Source of the DNA: a virus
Lineage: Duplodnaviria; Caudoviricetes
Virus record (IMG/VR): IMGVR_UViG_3300032312_000722
Location: 1 to 25,057 of that record
DNA length: 25,057 bases
Direction: 5' to 3' (one strand)
The notes under the pieces are model-generated. The model was not told the DNA's origin and searched no databases. It saw nothing but the letters and a program-made list of their open reading frames with translations. Each line of letters begins with the position of its first letter. Positions within the stretch are counted from its first letter, which is position 1. Shown piece after piece: positions 3,282-17,960 of the stretch. Both the position numbers and the translations under genes were made by a program.

Positions 3282-3569
3282 CTAGTCGTCTGCCCCTCCC
3301 GCGGGATGAGTGGCATCAATTCCAAGGGAATCGATAACTGCCACTGCAGATCTGAAACCTATGGCAAACCCACATGCTGTCAAGTCGCCTTTTTGAACTG
3401 CGCTAGAATCTTGCCTAATAGTCATATTTCTTAGGATCGCGGCGAACCTTACGCCATGCTCTGATCTCATAAAACTGCCAAGCGACCTGGCGTCTTCTTC
3501 GGTCCACTCGGGTTCGTCTACCCACTTGGTGAAGCGTATAAAGTTTAAGATTGCCCTTAGTCTTGTCAT
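3282..3569 (-). CDS. Small head-module hypothetical protein
   Basis: ATG at 3569 overlaps the FkbM stop (ATGA). It occupies the usual small-gene position between portal and scaffold. Confidence 0.65.
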   Translation of the reverse strand: MTRLRAILNFIRFTKWVDEPEWTEEDARSLGSFMRSEHGVRFAAILRNMTIRQDSSAVQKGDLTACGFAIGFRSAVAVIDSLGIDATHPAGGADD

Positions 3570-4366
3570 AGAATGCTTTCCGTCGAAAAACACAAGTTGT
3601 ATACGTTCTCAAACTTGGGCTCCTCGTCCATTGGTAGTTCTTTCGGCTCCTGACCCTCAATCAACCAACATCTGTACCCAATCTTTCCCATGACCTCTCG
3701 GACGTCGCGGTAGCTGTGCCCCATTTGAGCCAGCCCAAAATTATTTATCTCAAGCGCAACAATTGGCATGTTTTTTTTAAGCAGATCGATCATTCCATTC
3801 AGCCCCAGGACCTCCGCCCCCTCAATATCCATCTTGATGAAATCTACTTTCCCGAATGAGTCGTAATGATCTAGCGCAATAGAATAAGACACGACCTTCT
3901 GTGGGGATAGTCTGCTCTTTTCGTTAAAACTGTGCTTCCCACAATCCCATAGCGAGTGACCGCCGTCGTTATCCTGGTTAAGCCAAAACTGCACAGGGCC
4001 AGAGTCGTTTGAGATTGCCCAATTGTGCGGTCTTATGTTTCTAAAATTATTTAACCCGGCATTCATTACCAGCATGGAATAGTTGTCCGGATTCATTTCA
4101 AAGGAGTAAACCTCCCCATCCTCTCCAACCAGCTTCGCTGCGATCATGCTGAAGAACCCAACGTGGGCCCCAACGTCAATAAATGTATCTCCGCGCTTTA
4201 GCTTTCTAAGAATGAGCGCAAACAGCGCGCCCTCGTATGCGATGTTCTTTTCTAGGTGCGAACCAATATATTTCTGGCTCGTCTTTGAGTAATCTAAAAC
4301 TATCTTAACAGGGCCGTCGGAAACCCCTGGAAGTTCAATATTGAATATCTTAGACGGCTCGCTCAC
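3566..4366 (-). CDS. FkbM-family SAM-dependent methyltransferase
   Basis: FIDVGAHVGFFS SAM-binding motif, VYSFE, IKMDIEGAE..L.G and P++.+E motifs. Confidence 0.92.
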   Translation of the reverse strand: MSEPSKIFNIELPGVSDGPVKIVLDYSKTSQKYIGSHLEKNIAYEGALFALILRKLKRGDTFIDVGAHVGFFSMIAAKLVGEDGEVYSFEMNPDNYSMLVMNAGLNNFRNIRPHNWAISNDSGPVQFWLNQDNDGGHSLWDCGKHSFNEKSRLSPQKVVSYSIALDHYDSFGKVDFIKMDIEGAEVLGLNGMIDLLKKNMPIVALEINNFGLAQMGHSYRDVREVMGKIGYRCWLIEGQEPKELPMDEEPKFENVYNLCFSTESIL

Positions 4367-9188: not shown

Positions 9189-9392
9189 CCCTCCCGGTAG
9201 TTAGAAAACCCCGCGCCCGGGAACCACTTTCACCCCTCCCGGGTCGCAGCCAGTTCCCCAACCCACCCCATAAGAACTGGCTTGCGTCAAAGTATTGCAT
9301 CCAGGCCAACGCGCAAGTCTTTCGTGTTTCGCCTACATTTTCTGGTAAGAATTAAAAAGGCATATGGTAAACTGAAAAGACCCCGCGGTTGG

Positions 9393-9497
9393 AGCGGTAC
9401 CGCTAGCGAAGCGAAGCGGGGGGACTTTAGTCCCCCGCTCTAACAGGGGTCTGTTTCACCATTATATATATATAAGGGGAACGAAATGGTGAAACAG
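9393..9497. promoter_or_regulatory. Origin-like intergenic element with nested inverted repeats around a (TA)n core
   Basis: Palindrome AGCGGTACCGCT at 9393-9404; hairpin at 9415-9439; perfect 13-bp inverted repeat CTGTTTCACCATT (9451-9463) / AATGGTGAAACAG (9485-9497) flanking TATATATATATA. Confidence 0.55.
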
Positions 9498-9560
9498 TGT
9501 AGAACCCGGGTTTAACAGAGTAGGGCGAAATAGCTGTTTCTGGCCCTTTCGGGCTATGTT

Positions 9561-9764
9561 TCAGGTCAGTTTAAGCGGTCGAAACGATGCCACCGGGAGC
9601 TCTTTCCCGGCCCAATTCCTGTTCCCTTTAGGCGCCCCACCCTTCTTACCGTTAGCGATCGACGCCTTGGCCTTAGCCTCCGACCTCACCTTGCCGATCC
9701 TGGACGCGAATAACGCCACCGGGACCGCACATCTACAGTTAGGACATTCAATTGATTGACTCAT
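9561..9764 (-). CDS. Small basic protein with CxxC and a KASIANGKKGGAP motif, putative DNA binder
   Basis: ATG at 9764 overlaps the Mom-like stop (ATGA). CPNC plus an NGKKGGxP motif of the kind seen in small phage basic proteins. Confidence 0.7.
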   Translation of the reverse strand: MSQSIECPNCRCAVPVALFASRIGKVRSEAKAKASIANGKKGGAPKGNRNWAGKELPVASFRPLKLT

Positions 9765-10429
9765 TCTTGCCTCCATTCTTTCCATTCTTTCCAGTTTTGT
9801 ATCTCCCATTTCAGCAACGACTTGTCCTTCTGATTGCAGAAATAGACAAACCTATGCTTCCTGGTCCGCGGAACAATCACTGCTTCCTCCATGGTCCTCG
9901 AGTGCCTGCTGTGCTTGTTGCCTACCACCTTGTCCCCGGAAGGTCTCTTGTCGGACAGTCCGGTATAGATCCAGTTCGTTGCCGAGTAGATCATTCCATT
10001 GTGCCCGGCCCCGGTGTCAGCATAGCTAACCAGGATTAAGTGGGGCCGCAACTTCGTTAGCTCACGAATGCTCCAGGATATAAATCTGCTCTCAGAGTTT
10101 TTGGGGCACCGATCGTCGAGCCACAATCTGTTCAACTCGTAGACCCTGGACGCGTTCTCTGCCCCGCATATGCCCCTGCATAGATGAGGCGACGCGGGTT
10201 TGCCGAATGAAATCACGCCTAGCAGTTCACTGCCATGGAAGCATCCGAACGACCAGTTGCACGGCACGGCCCGGTGCGCGTAGTGGTTAGCGACGACTAC
10301 TTCATTCATCGTCTTTGACCCTACGGCCCGGAATTTAAGTTGGAGCGCAGAGGTAGGAATTGCACCTCCGTTCTCCCCTTGGAATAGGGGAAGTTCTACT
10401 ACTGAACTATCTGCGCGTAAACTCACCAT
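9761..10429 (-). CDS. mom: Mom-family adenine modification enzyme (GNAT-like fold)
   Basis: Motifs NHY, LLGVISFG.P, ELNRLWLDD..PKNSESRFIS, LVSYAD...GH.G.IY.ATNW.YTG and K.R+VY. The start at 10429 (or GTG 10426) overlaps the upstream stop (ATGGTGA). Confidence 0.88.
   Translation of the reverse strand: MVSLRADSSVVELPLFQGENGGAIPTSALQLKFRAVGSKTMNEVVVANHYAHRAVPCNWSFGCFHGSELLGVISFGKPASPHLCRGICGAENASRVYELNRLWLDDRCPKNSESRFISWSIRELTKLRPHLILVSYADTGAGHNGMIYSATNWIYTGLSDKRPSGDKVVGNKHSRHSRTMEEAVIVPRTRKHRFVYFCNQKDKSLLKWEIQNWKEWKEWRQE
10341..10416 (-). tRNA. Non-canonical tRNA-Gly(UCC)-like RNA embedded in the mom 5' coding region
   Basis: GCGCAGA TA GTTC AGTAGTA GAAC T TCCCC TATTCCAA GGGGA GAAC GGAGG TGCAATT CCT(A)CC TCTGCGC T CCA: 7-bp acceptor stem, 4-bp D stem, 5-bp anticodon stem, T stem with one bulge, U73 and CCA. 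Confidence 0.8.
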
Positions 10430-10776
10430 GTCCCCATCTCGTCGATGAACCCGATCGTCTTGTCCCGGCGATCCTTCAGCACTGCCAGAAGCCTGTCGGT
10501 CATGTCGACCTCGGACAGCATGGAGTTTCCCCCTATGCAACTCCCACACCTATTGAGGTAGGTCAGGATCTTGGGCTTGTTGCTGGCGGACTGATTGATC
10601 TCACAGATTCCGTAGTCGTTCCCGGACCGATAATACTTGCCCGGGACCATCTGCTCAAACGTCAGTTCACCCTCCTCTTCGGAGTAATACTTCATGATTT
10701 CCTCCAGTACATTTTCCACATGAACACGGTGCATAGAATTCCGCATGGGGTCAATAGGATTAGTTCTGACATACAA
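10423..10776 (-). CDS. Hypothetical protein
   Basis: 117 aa, AAGGAGGT RBS, coupled to its neighbours. Confidence 0.7.
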   Translation of the reverse strand: MYVRTNPIDPMRNSMHRVHVENVLEEIMKYYSEEEGELTFEQMVPGKYYRSGNDYGICEINQSASNKPKILTYLNRCGSCIGGNSMLSEVDMTDRLLAVLKDRRDKTIGFIDEMGTW

Positions 10777-15455: not shown

Positions 15456-15532
15456 TTATTCAGCTTGTCGCAGTACATGAGGAGTACTCCAAAGACAACC
15501 ATCCAAAACATGATTATAAAGAAATCGCTCAT
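15452..15532 (-). CDS. 26 aa single-TM peptide
   Basis: MSDFFIIMFWMVVFGVLLMYCDKLNK; ATGA overlaps at both ends fill the gap exactly. Confidence 0.5.
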   Translation of the reverse strand: MSDFFIIMFWMVVFGVLLMYCDKLNK

Positions 15533-16092
15533 CGCCACTGCCCTCCGGTAAGCCAGGCGACCAGCACCCATCTAGAGCCAAAGAACACTGGCAGTGCTTG
15601 GTGCCTGACGTAGGTGGGGAACATCGTTGCCGATCCCCGCTTCTTTACATCTTTCGCGTTGTGCAAGTCGCACTCAACCCGAAGTCCTCCGCCTAGAAAC
15701 TCTGATGGATCTGATAGGTTGATCACCATGGTTAGCTTGCGATCACTTCCGTCAAAGCAGTCAAAGTGCGGCAGGAAGAACTGACCCGGCCTGTAGCGCA
15801 GGATCTGCAGTTGCTGAATGCCTGTGATGTCAAACTTGTAGTGCTCTTCGTTTAGGTCCATGGCAACACTTCTGACAACGTCGTATAGCCACTTATAATG
15901 TTCTGCGAACGGCACCCAACAAGATGAGCATGTCCTGGTGTATGAAGACCTGGTCGTTCCGTCCTTCTTCATGACGTGAGATCTCCTCATGCCTATGACC
16001 TCGGCATCATCGCGAATCATATTGCACTGCCCCTGCGTCAACACGTCTGGCTCGCACACTGCCGTTAAAATCTTTTGCTTAAACTGGCTCAT
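15529..16092 (-). CDS. 2OG-Fe(II) oxygenase (prolyl-4-hydroxylase/PKHD-like)
   Basis: Q...Y..GQFF.PHFD (HxD), RKLT+VINLSD, GG.L, FP.Y..H...PV..G.R..LV.W. Confidence 0.92.
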   Translation of the reverse strand: MSQFKQKILTAVCEPDVLTQGQCNMIRDDAEVIGMRRSHVMKKDGTTRSSYTRTCSSCWVPFAEHYKWLYDVVRSVAMDLNEEHYKFDITGIQQLQILRYRPGQFFLPHFDCFDGSDRKLTMVINLSDPSEFLGGGLRVECDLHNAKDVKKRGSATMFPTYVRHQALPVFFGSRWVLVAWLTGGQWR

Positions 16093-16339
16093 TGGCCGCC
16101 TCCTTTATTGCTGTTACCATTGCGTACTGAAACAACGCGTCCTTATCGCTGGAGATATGGATGCGACCGGCCTCGACAATTGCCTCGTAAGTTTCCTTGT
16201 CTACGTCCAGGCCAAACTCGTAGCAAATAACTTTCTTCTCAGAAATTATTTTAATCAGACCTGTTTTAGATTCGCCTGGATTTCTTTTGTCTTTGCCAGA
16301 ATGTCTTCTGGCTTGATTGATTTTAGAACGTTGCACCAT
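16079..16339 (-). CDS. Hypothetical protein
   Basis: 86 aa after an AAGGAG RBS; overlaps the GT9 3' end. Confidence 0.55.
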   Translation of the reverse strand: MVQRSKINQARRHSGKDKRNPGESKTGLIKIISEKKVICYEFGLDVDKETYEAIVEAGRIHISSDKDALFQYAMVTAIKEAANEPV

Positions 16340-17319
16340 TTGGGTTCTCCTTTTATCGCGTTGACTGCATCTTTACATTTATCCTTGGGTTGCTCGTACA
16401 CCGAGCATGGGGCGTGGGGACAAACATCTTTAGGGAAGATTGGCTTCACATACTTGTAGTACTTCGAGGTGTGCTCAGGTCCGTAAGGTCCGTACAACCC
16501 TACGGTTGGCGCGTCGAATACCGCGGTCATGTGCATGATTGCCGACTCCGGGCAAACTGCCATGTCACAACGCGCGGCCAGGTGCATTAACGACCTGACG
16601 TTGCGCAATCTTCCCTGTAAATTGATTAGCCTGTTATGCGTGATCGACAGCGGAGGATCATCGTGACCAACCGCTACAACGCTCCAATCCTTATTCTCCT
16701 TTAGGAACGACTTGATGAACAGTCCTGCCTCGTAGGTCGGGTAACTCTTCCACAGGCTAGATCCACTGATCGAATAAAGTAGGAATGGTCCGGCAACGTC
16801 AAATCCAACCGTAGCAAGTTCATGCTGATCCTTTTCCATCAGTTTTGCATATGGCTTCTTAAACTGATCGTCAACCTCTACGCCCCAGGATCTGTAGACG
16901 TAGTCATACACGTTTCCGTCTAGGTGTGCGGTCTTCGACAAGATATCGTCAAGACAGACGTGGCCCTTGTACGACTTCCAGGTGGCGATTGTGGGTGCTA
17001 GCGGTAGCGCCCTGACTCCTGCAAATCCTTCCCACAATCCAAGATGACGCTGGGGAACGTAGACATCGATCCTTCCGTCTCCCTCGTAGTGTTGCATAGC
17101 CCTGGCGATGCCCATGGCGATGAACTGATCTCCAATCGCCCCGCCCCGGTACAGGGCCGCGTACCCGCCCGAGGCACAACCAACCCTGTACGGTATCGTG
17201 TACGCGTCTGCATGTGTGCCGGGCACCCCGCGGACTTCATCCGGGACTACGATCGAATCGTGCGGATGGTGGAGCCGATCGTCCAACATCATGGGATCTT
17301 TTAGGGTCAATATTCTCAT
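16255..17319 (-). CDS. Glycosyltransferase family 9 (heptosyltransferase-like, GT-B)
   Basis: GAIGD, K.YP and ESAIMHMTAVFDAPTVGLYGP (DSG.MH+AAA+..P.+.L+GP consensus); Cys-rich C-terminus. Confidence 0.88.
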   Translation of the reverse strand: MRILTLKDPMMLDDRLHHPHDSIVVPDEVRGVPGTHADAYTIPYRVGCASGGYAALYRGGAIGDQFIAMGIARAMQHYEGDGRIDVYVPQRHLGLWEGFAGVRALPLAPTIATWKSYKGHVCLDDILSKTAHLDGNVYDYVYRSWGVEVDDQFKKPYAKLMEKDQHELATVGFDVAGPFLLYSISGSSLWKSYPTYEAGLFIKSFLKENKDWSVVAVGHDDPPLSITHNRLINLQGRLRNVRSLMHLAARCDMAVCPESAIMHMTAVFDAPTVGLYGPYGPEHTSKYYKYVKPIFPKDVCPHAPCSVYEQPKDKCKDAVNAIKGEPKWCNVLKSIKPEDILAKTKEIQANLKQV

Positions 17320-17960
17320 GGTAATACCTTGTCCATTTCCTCAATCCACTTTGCCCTGGCATCTCCGTAGATCCCAGCTGCGTGTGGCATGAAACCATCC
17401 GACTGTTTCTTGTCTTTAGGCGTATTGATCTCCATCGCGTTCCATTCCCAACTCAGGAACCGGATAGAGTAACCGAGCATTCTGGCCCGGTAGTTAGTAA
17501 AAGTCTGCTCGGGGAATGCGAATGGGGCGTACACGAAATTGGCCCAAGCGCCTGCATGTTGCTTATCGCAAACCATGACTCCGGTATTGAAGTATCCTTG
17601 CGTCCACCTAACCGATCCGAGCAGTGCCTGGGATAGGATCATCTCGTTCGCCCGGCCCCAATGTAACTGGTCGCCGTGAGGAGCATCGGCACAAGCGTAG
17701 AAGTGTCCGTGAGGGAAAGTCTCGAATGGGTTTACGCACTCGCGCGAAATCAATACATCGCTGTCGACAAACAGAGTCCTGTCAGCATTCTGCACCGCAT
17801 CGACTAGCGACATCTTGGCTAGCAGTCCGATCGGCTTCTCCGGCTTAATGACTACAAGATCTGCGCCCCAGCGCGTTGACGCCTCTTTTATTCTAGGGAG
17901 GGAATGCTTCTCAAACCATTCCGGCAACTGGCAACTAACCGTTACTATTTGCTTCTTCAT
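17316..17960 (-). CDS. Glycosyltransferase family 8-like (GT-A)
   Basis: LFVDSD (DxD), YFNTGVMV, EQT..N, WN and H.AG motifs. Confidence 0.85.
   Translation of the reverse strand: MKKQIVTVSCQLPEWFEKHSLPRIKEASTRWGADLVVIKPEKPIGLLAKMSLVDAVQNADRTLFVDSDVLISRECVNPFETFPHGHFYACADAPHGDQLHWGRANEMILSQALLGSVRWTQGYFNTGVMVCDKQHAGAWANFVYAPFAFPEQTFTNYRARMLGYSIRFLSWEWNAMEINTPKDKKQSDGFMPHAAGIYGDARAKWIEEMDKVLP

Follow-up and report, generated by a model that had tools for sequence, protein, structure and literature searches.

A tRNA-Gly-like pseudo-tRNA of 76 bp was described in 2011 within the first 150 bp of a mom homologue in 16 Dehalococcoides ssrA islands and one fosmid (McMurdie et al. 2011, PMC3146451); in the sections of that article available to us, it served as a primer target and was assigned no function. 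The Mom protein of phage Mu, in turn, has been characterized as a Gly-tRNA-Gly-dependent modifier of adenine N6 (Silva et al. 2026, PMC13219725; preprint 10.1101/2023.03.24.534169, 2023) and presumably recognizes its tRNA by the acceptor end (PMC13219725). Recognition of tRNA-Gly by glycyl-tRNA synthetase (GlyRS) relies on G1-C72, C2-G71, U73, C35, and C36 (PMC9976931), while elongation factor Tu (EF-Tu) reads three pairs of the T stem (PMC9976931, PMC3239215). Here we analyzed a 25,057-nt stretch of viral DNA (IMG/VR record IMGVR_UViG_3300032312_000722; hereafter, the window) that carries, on its minus strand, a tRNA-Gly-like cloverleaf within a mom gene. The embedded element is already in print since 2011 and is not new; we found no literature that joins it to the Gly-tRNA chemistry of Mom, subscription papers lying mostly outside the search. 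We read the element as a glycine-tRNA gene, deformed yet conserved, within the mom coding sequence, and we consider it fairly probable that its product serves as a private glycine carrier of Mom, which is excised from the message, charged by the host GlyRS, and kept out of translation.

A preceding reading of this DNA, made from its letters without database searches (the sequence-only reading), had described a 76-nt minus-strand cloverleaf with intact glycine identity elements inside the mom frame and had expected tRNA finders to score it low. Each feature that it had listed for the cloverleaf was recovered from the sequence at the same position. The mom gene and the parts of the cloverleaf are as follows.

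9761..10429, minus strand: mom gene, 222 amino acids, with an unstructured, tRNA-encoded head of 30 residues followed by a GNAT core (PF25680, phrog_1384, 8bv8).
10341..10416, minus strand: tRNA-Gly-like cloverleaf, 76 nt with encoded CCA, corresponding to mom codons 5-30 (Rfam RF00005, fold z-score, covariation).
10410..10416, minus strand: 5′ acceptor strand, pairing with 10345-10351 (sequence).
10404-10407/10393-10396, minus strand: D stem, enclosing a 7-nt loop without GG (sequence).
10387-10391/10374-10378, minus strand: anticodon stem (sequence).
10379..10386, minus strand: anticodon loop of 8 nt with TCC, the CC (10381-10382) lying across a codon boundary (sequence).
10354..10354, minus strand: bulged A between T-stem positions 63 and 64, in the EF-Tu contact zone, the family hallmark (protein-found representatives and no-bulge control).
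10341..10351, minus strand: 3′ acceptor strand with U73 and CCA (glycine identity), pairing with 10410-10416 (sequence).

The window copy thus contains the complete glycine identity set (G1-C72, C2-G71, U73, C35, and C36) within a cloverleaf, and it lacks all four marks of a translating tRNA, namely an unbroken 5-bp T stem, a 7-nt anticodon loop with U33, G18G19, and a TTC loop. Its T stem combines A51-U63 with the single bulged A, the T loop begins with TGC, and in the minimum-free-energy fold the first U-A pair of the anticodon loop closes, leaving 6 nt. The cloverleaf was the sole match to RF00005 in the window at an E value of ≤1 and reached 33.5 bits, the gathering score being 29; ARAGORN at default settings made no call for it. 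The fold z-score was −3.25, and equal stability was reached by 1 of 200 shuffled sequences. The eight RNA data sets compared consist entirely of assembled contigs, from which neither transcript ends nor strand can be read, and gave no sign of a processed 76-mer. Two metatranscriptome contigs (X1 and X3) span the whole element, which fits either precursor RNA or DNA and is uninformative on processing.

The start of mom is likely the ATG at 10429. The nearest homologues are 216 to 224 amino acids long and have the same N-terminus, and the Pfam match to Mom starts at the first codon after the CCA, 11 codons ahead of the next in-frame ATG; on these grounds the cloverleaf lies within the mom frame, as had been proposed, and not upstream of it. 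A shorter gene starting at the ATG at 10309, which would leave the tRNA merely upstream, was excluded because the first GNAT strand precedes this ATG; moreover, an ATG within five codons of the CCA was present in only 2 of 46 homologues. The protein matched PF25680 with 134 to 136 bits (cut-off of 27.1) and also phrog_1384, and its sole match in PDB was Mu Mom (8bv8; E value of 2e-25; HHalign probability of 99.3). AlphaFold returned a model with a mean predicted local distance difference test score (pLDDT) of 86.6, mostly above 90 in the core, whereas residues 1-30 reached only 45, 55, and 67 per successive ten residues and formed almost no secondary structure. Six of the eight residues important for the activity of Mu Mom are kept (H58, Y59, R111, S124, D149, and Y159 of Mu, corresponding to H49, Y50, R101, S114, D138, and Y148 of the window protein). 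The window Mom is predicted to make N6-carbamoylmethyl-dA from Gly-tRNA, its activity not being certain for a reason given below.

To find further copies independently of the protein, viral contigs were searched by two DNA-pattern scans blind to Mom, each of which yielded at least 120 loci out of an estimated ~670 and ~180 stretches, respectively, and the 80 loci per scan with 900-base flanks were classified. A same-strand Mom lay beside the element at 75 of 80 loci in the first scan (wider hidden Markov model [HMM]; 74 confirmed by Pfam) and at 60 of 80 in the second (our own HMM only), that is, at 135 of 160 viral loci. As a control, the same pattern without the bulge was used; Mom was found at 0 of 96 of these loci, which include Gly, Leu, and Lys tRNAs of the ordinary kind, and in 0 of 30 of the whole records, although the same whole-record search did detect Mom in records of elements whose flanks lacked it. 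In bacterial genomes, the element pattern occurred in 3 of the 401 genomes from the phylum of genome G001, each time at the 5′ end of mom (one case was already known via mom), and 13 of the 14 host tRNA-Gly genes away from Mom in genomes G001-G005, partly read by eye, had no bulge.

The position of the element relative to mom was variable. Among the 135 loci, 49 elements lay at the 5′ end and 86 at the 3′ end, 7 of all being non-overlapping; by class, 47 were inside the 5′ end, 1 overlapped partially, 51 at the 3′ end were translated in full, 29 contained the stop codon, mostly among the first bases of the element, and 7 were separate. Such free placement suits a diffusible product. On a FastTree tree of 192 rows, in which long branches were flagged and the mixing of classes can be read but not its direction, the 5′, 3′, free, and element-less classes were interspersed, with 23 changes. 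Because the classes are interspersed and identical elements are attached to Mom bodies that are only 23 to 35% identical (10 pairs), the element moves as a module. Two arrangements with more than one element were seen: the close relative L178 (likewise L179) carries two divergent tandem Mom-type genes with one 5′ element each (L178:539-614 and L178:1230-1305), whereas the window carries only one, and L536 (901-1006) carries two tandem, non-overlapping elements just past the mom stop codon. Separately, a second, free-standing type of tRNA-Gly-like element with a different T arm lies ~200 to 270 bases upstream of mom at L232:878-949 and L127:2714-2785.

Next to this association, the conservation of the element was analyzed at the level of RNA. 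Among 122 Mom proteins (the 120 best of 1,508 matches and two readings of the window protein), 71 showed the T arm in translated form close to the N-terminus. In the DNA of 255 mom loci from four scans, two of which comprised the best 80 of more than 550 loci each, a pairing score assigned the cloverleaf to the 5′ end of the gene and to one reading frame, with a single upstream exception (L249). Among 34 distinct close relatives, 21 of the 26 element residues were invariant; four-fold sites were variable at 5 of 14 positions inside the element versus 44 of 44 outside, and synonymous change at invariant residues was seen at 10 of 21 positions in the element versus 112 of 115 outside (Fisher p of 2e-8). 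In the compensatory pairs of columns 11-23 and 50-62, both sides changed by synonymous substitutions only. Since the synonymous sites are frozen and covarying, these comparisons indicate that selection acts on the RNA and not on the peptide. At L117:2994-3065, a 72-nt element has a length that would bring the usual TAG at tRNA positions 8-10 into frame; these positions read TCG, which hints at selection on RNA and reading frame together.

Covariation was quantified in 58 gap-free 76-mers, 16 found via the protein and 42 via the pattern, in which T arm and 3′ end are preset. All cells of the acceptor and T helices were paired (100%), acceptor pairs 4-7 each showed 15 to 32 two-sided changes, and the covariation score was 0.445 as opposed to 0.135 after shuffling (0 of 500 shuffles as high) and 0.08 to 0.25 after sliding. 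For the D and anticodon helices the values were lower, at 56.5% and 63.5%, and the D arm was missing from the RNAalifold result, because the gap-free alignment mixes two D/anticodon registers. These arms were therefore parsed per sequence in 103 representatives of less than 90% similarity, 75 from the pattern and 28 from the protein; a complete D stem with at least four of five anticodon pairs was present in 78 of 103, compared with 39 of 515 shuffles. All four stems covary.

In the same 103 representatives, the glycine elements were nearly invariant: GCG/CGC was present in 102, U73 in 96 (A73 in 6), CCA in 101, and CC in the anticodon loop in 99, although the anticodon CC was never part of any search pattern. 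In 71 of the 78 translated representatives the CC runs across a codon boundary, and the codons that contain it stand for 22 different dipeptides. A constant defect was one extra base between T-stem positions 63 and 64. The bulge was not imposed on the 28 protein-found representatives, which were selected by their pairing, up to two extra bases being permitted, and all 28 carry it (27 A and 1 G); counting the 75 in which the pattern imposed it, the bulge position is present in 103 of 103. By contrast, a 7-nt anticodon loop was present in 48, a canonical anticodon loop in 21, the D-loop GG in 45, and TTC in 49, and only 5 of 103 kept the canonical anticodon loop, GG, and TTC together. The hallmark of the family is thus the T-stem bulge, and the EF-Tu contact region of the T stem, whose alteration marks non-proteinogenic tRNAs, is altered.

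These data bear on what the sequence-only reading had foreseen for the family. That mom homologues would conserve the cloverleaf, compensating changes in its pairs and leaving the glycine identity elements nearly invariant, was borne out by the 58 76-mers, the 103 representatives, and the 34 relatives, and the Gly-tRNA-Gly co-substrate of Mom that it had named has been published (PMC13219725). Its list of degraded translation features holds in full for the window copy and only in part for the family, in which the D-loop GG, TTC, and the 7-nt loop vary as given above and A-U at 51-63 occurs in 2 of 58 76-mers. The T-stem bulge, which it had noted for the window, is the one listed mark against translation that extends to the whole family.

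The excision, charging, EF-Tu avoidance, and glycine transfer that make up the proposed private carrier are steps that we infer. Release of a tRNA from a message requires RNase P and 3′ trimming. Host RNase P and trimming activities would free the 76-mer from the mom message, with the RNase P cut predicted at the 5′ edge of 10410..10416, 13 nt past the A of the start codon. Host GlyRS would charge the 76-mer through G1-C72, C2-G71, U73, and C35 C36, while the bulge beside pairs 50-64 and 51-63, together with the odd anticodon loop, would bar EF-Tu and the ribosome. Mom would then move the glycine from the CCA end onto adenine N6 of the phage DNA, a transfer that Mu Mom carries out from host Gly-tRNA. 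Excision would take away the start codon in the 5′ class, as in the window, or the stop codon in the 3′ class; each transcript would yield the enzyme first and the carrier after, and the amount of enzyme would thereby be capped. The preserved anticodon CC points to charging, as CC is a determinant for GlyRS (PMC9976931), whereas Mom itself accepts all three isoacceptors and presumably recognizes the acceptor end. With the GlyRS set kept and the helix broken at the EF-Tu site, a carrier that is charged yet remains outside translation would be the simplest reading, by analogy with the staphylococcal cell-wall tRNAs (PMC4574755). The overlap with the frame at 128 of 135 loci suggests that the start/stop coupling itself is selected, and it points to an additional role in cis. 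More tentatively, and with somewhat less than an even chance in our judgment, the elements may mark a class of genes, widespread in phages and islands, that give from a single transcript both a DNA-modifying enzyme and an orthogonal bulged tRNA-Gly, which would be cut out of the frame of that enzyme, charged by the host, invisible to EF-Tu, and preferred by its Mom over host tRNA, excision acting as the off switch.

Several observations weigh against the carrier reading. Mu Mom accepts all three E. coli tRNA-Gly isoacceptors and rejects glycine on tRNA-Ala (PMC13219725). Mu R151 aligns to G140 and W48 to K39 of the window protein, and it is the loss of these two residues, important in Mu, that makes its activity uncertain. 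Covariance model R1 detected the element at mom loci from viruses (8 of 69), genomes (24 of 60), and metagenomes (21 of 80) and found none in the Mu mom region; since it matches a minority of mom loci and Mu is without the element, the latter is dispensable for many Moms, being common but not universal. In a tblastn search of cultured phages, the first 21 residues were left uncovered in the best 60 of 310 records matching the Mom core. The extent of coding overlap exceeds what a plain donor in trans needs, and the reading frame is shared by both ends in 35 of 36 fully translated 3′ cases, for which we have no explanation beyond common descent. At 25 of the 160 pattern loci there was no Mom within the flank; a whole-record search of 22 such records found Mom over the cut-off in 2, a weak match in 2, and none in 18, two of which are 83 to 85% complete. 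A tRNA-Gly(TCC) with a bulged T-stem U also lies away from Mom, beside a phosphatase-like gene, in the Acidobacteriota genome G002 (L598:1501-1577), where another use or a remnant is possible. Finally, in the accessible portions of the literature we found no measurement of the effect of a T-stem bulge on EF-Tu binding.

The bulged or near-bulged elements without a flanking Mom lie near genes for endolysin and a SprT-like protein (L484, L517, and L526), Hsp20 (L485, L511, and L549), or a ParB-like protein (L513, L519, and L523). Pfam revealed no recurring acyltransferase among the neighbors of such elements, and the enzyme that partners them may be another, or a distantly related, acyltransferase. 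The no-bulge scan additionally returned L378 and ~40 similar loci with a recurring tRNA-like element that has an encoded CCA, is ARAGORN negative, and has no Mom nearby.

The main rival to the private carrier is an element that acts in cis only, as a tRNA mimic that is cut by RNase P or bound by Mom or GlyRS and restrains a toxic enzyme without donating glycine. In its favor, 128 of 135 elements overlap the mom frame and 29 contain the stop codon, so that a cut at the tRNA 5′ end would remove the start or the stop codon, and in Mu, which lacks the element, translation of Mom is controlled through Com according to the record annotation. We nevertheless regard this explanation as unlikely, as 7 elements do not overlap mom, L536 carries two tandem copies behind the stop codon, a regulator seldom works alike from either end, and both the glycine identity and the anticodon CC are kept, neither of which RNase P requires.

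Alternatively, a short peptide might be conserved, or the element might be a recombination cassette or homology block that shuffles Mom bodies. The frame common to the N- and C-termini, the invariant residues among close relatives, the identical elements heading divergent Mom bodies, the tandem L178 genes with one element each, and the interspersed placement classes would all fit. It is very unlikely, however, in view of the frozen and covarying synonymous sites, the low pLDDT and missing secondary structure of the peptide, and the 29 elements untranslated beyond an internal stop and 7 outside the frame; nor does recombination need a cloverleaf. A decoy or sponge that guards the supply of glycine-tRNA, for example against host anticodon nucleases or toxins acetylating Gly-tRNA, is scarcely probable: the TacT determinants U73 and G71 are kept (PMC9976931) and the anticodon loops vary in size and sequence, but a decoy has no need to stay with mom, as the element does at 135 of 160 loci, or to keep GlyRS determinants and CCA. 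That the element decodes as a normal tRNA-Gly, or is what a decayed tRNA or an attachment site left in mom by chance, is hardly credible despite its passing the Rfam threshold and the 5 of 103 representatives that are canonical apart from the bulge, given the absence of Mom beside ordinary, bulge-free phage tRNAs that share its T arm (0 of 96), the largely bulge-free host tRNA-Gly genes, full-length covariation that rules out decay, and the lack of an integrase by Pfam or PHROG among the 28 window open reading frames (ORFs) scanned.

The virus record is linear, with 25,057 bases and ~65% complete, and encodes proteins matching portal, capsid, terminase, primase-helicase, and endolysin (Pfam, PHROG). 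The element lies on the minus strand with the primase-helicase region on one side and the terminase genes on the other, and no promoter or terminator signals above chance were found around it. An upstream ORF of 117 amino acids (10423..10776, minus strand, from the sequence), without a Pfam or PHROG match, has a stop codon that overlaps the mom start, and the two are likely translationally coupled. Between mom and the gene for the terminase small subunit, the noncoding gap at 9200-9560 contains an AT run enclosed by the arms of a perfect 13-nt inverted repeat (9451-9463/9485-9497), as well as two terminator-like hairpins; it is possibly an origin, a genome end, or a late control region. Genes for a 2OG-Fe(II) oxygenase, two glycosyltransferase-like proteins, and an FkbM methyltransferase at 15529-17960 and 3566-4366 possibly form a second DNA or surface modification set.

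If the private-carrier reading is true, the element would specify a tRNA reserved for DNA modification and withheld from translation, and its gene would double as coding sequence of the enzyme using it. It would explain how Mom obtains Gly-tRNA past EF-Tu without a drain on translation and would assign a function to the pseudo-tRNA of 2011. As a candidate EF-Tu antideterminant of natural origin, the T-stem bulge would be of use in building orthogonal tRNAs, and it is a sequence marker by which mom genes may be located without protein searches. The present analysis adds the diagnostic use of the bulge, backed by a negative control, the placements at the 3′ end of mom or outside it, and the test on synonymous sites.

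Among the known systems, the Dehalococcoides pseudo-tRNA, which we compared by its description only, has the same length, the same location in mom, and a DCC anticodon in a non-standard loop (PMC3146451), and its relatives in Dehalococcoidia metagenome-assembled genomes match model R1. The available parts of that description make no mention of the bulge in the T stem, of elements placed 3′ or apart from mom, or of the spread among phages, which are reported here. Mu Mom shares with the window Mom the family, the fold, and six aligned residues, no fold search having been made; it differs in using host tRNA-Gly without an embedded element and in retaining R151 and W48, and the helix-turn-helix-like insertion of the window Mom is shorter. 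The staphylococcal NP1, NP2, and NEW tRNA-Gly species, which serve FemXAB, likewise keep glycine identity and have lost the D-loop GG, and the window copy has the weak-binding A51-U63 as well (PMC4574755, PMC3239215, PMC9976931). They are, however, free-standing chromosomal genes with altered T-stem pairs, whereas the element lies in the frame of its enzyme, is marked by a bulge, and has DNA as its predicted acceptor. Finally, the Allo-tRNAs and the 8/4 tRNA-Sec/Cys with bulge 51a (Mukai et al. 2017, PMC5389517) share with the element a bulged, non-canonical acceptor branch and an occurrence in bacteria and phages; their branch is 8/4 or 9/3 with Ser, His, Cys, or Sec identity, while that of the element is 7/5, with a bulge in the 3′ strand and the identity of glycine.
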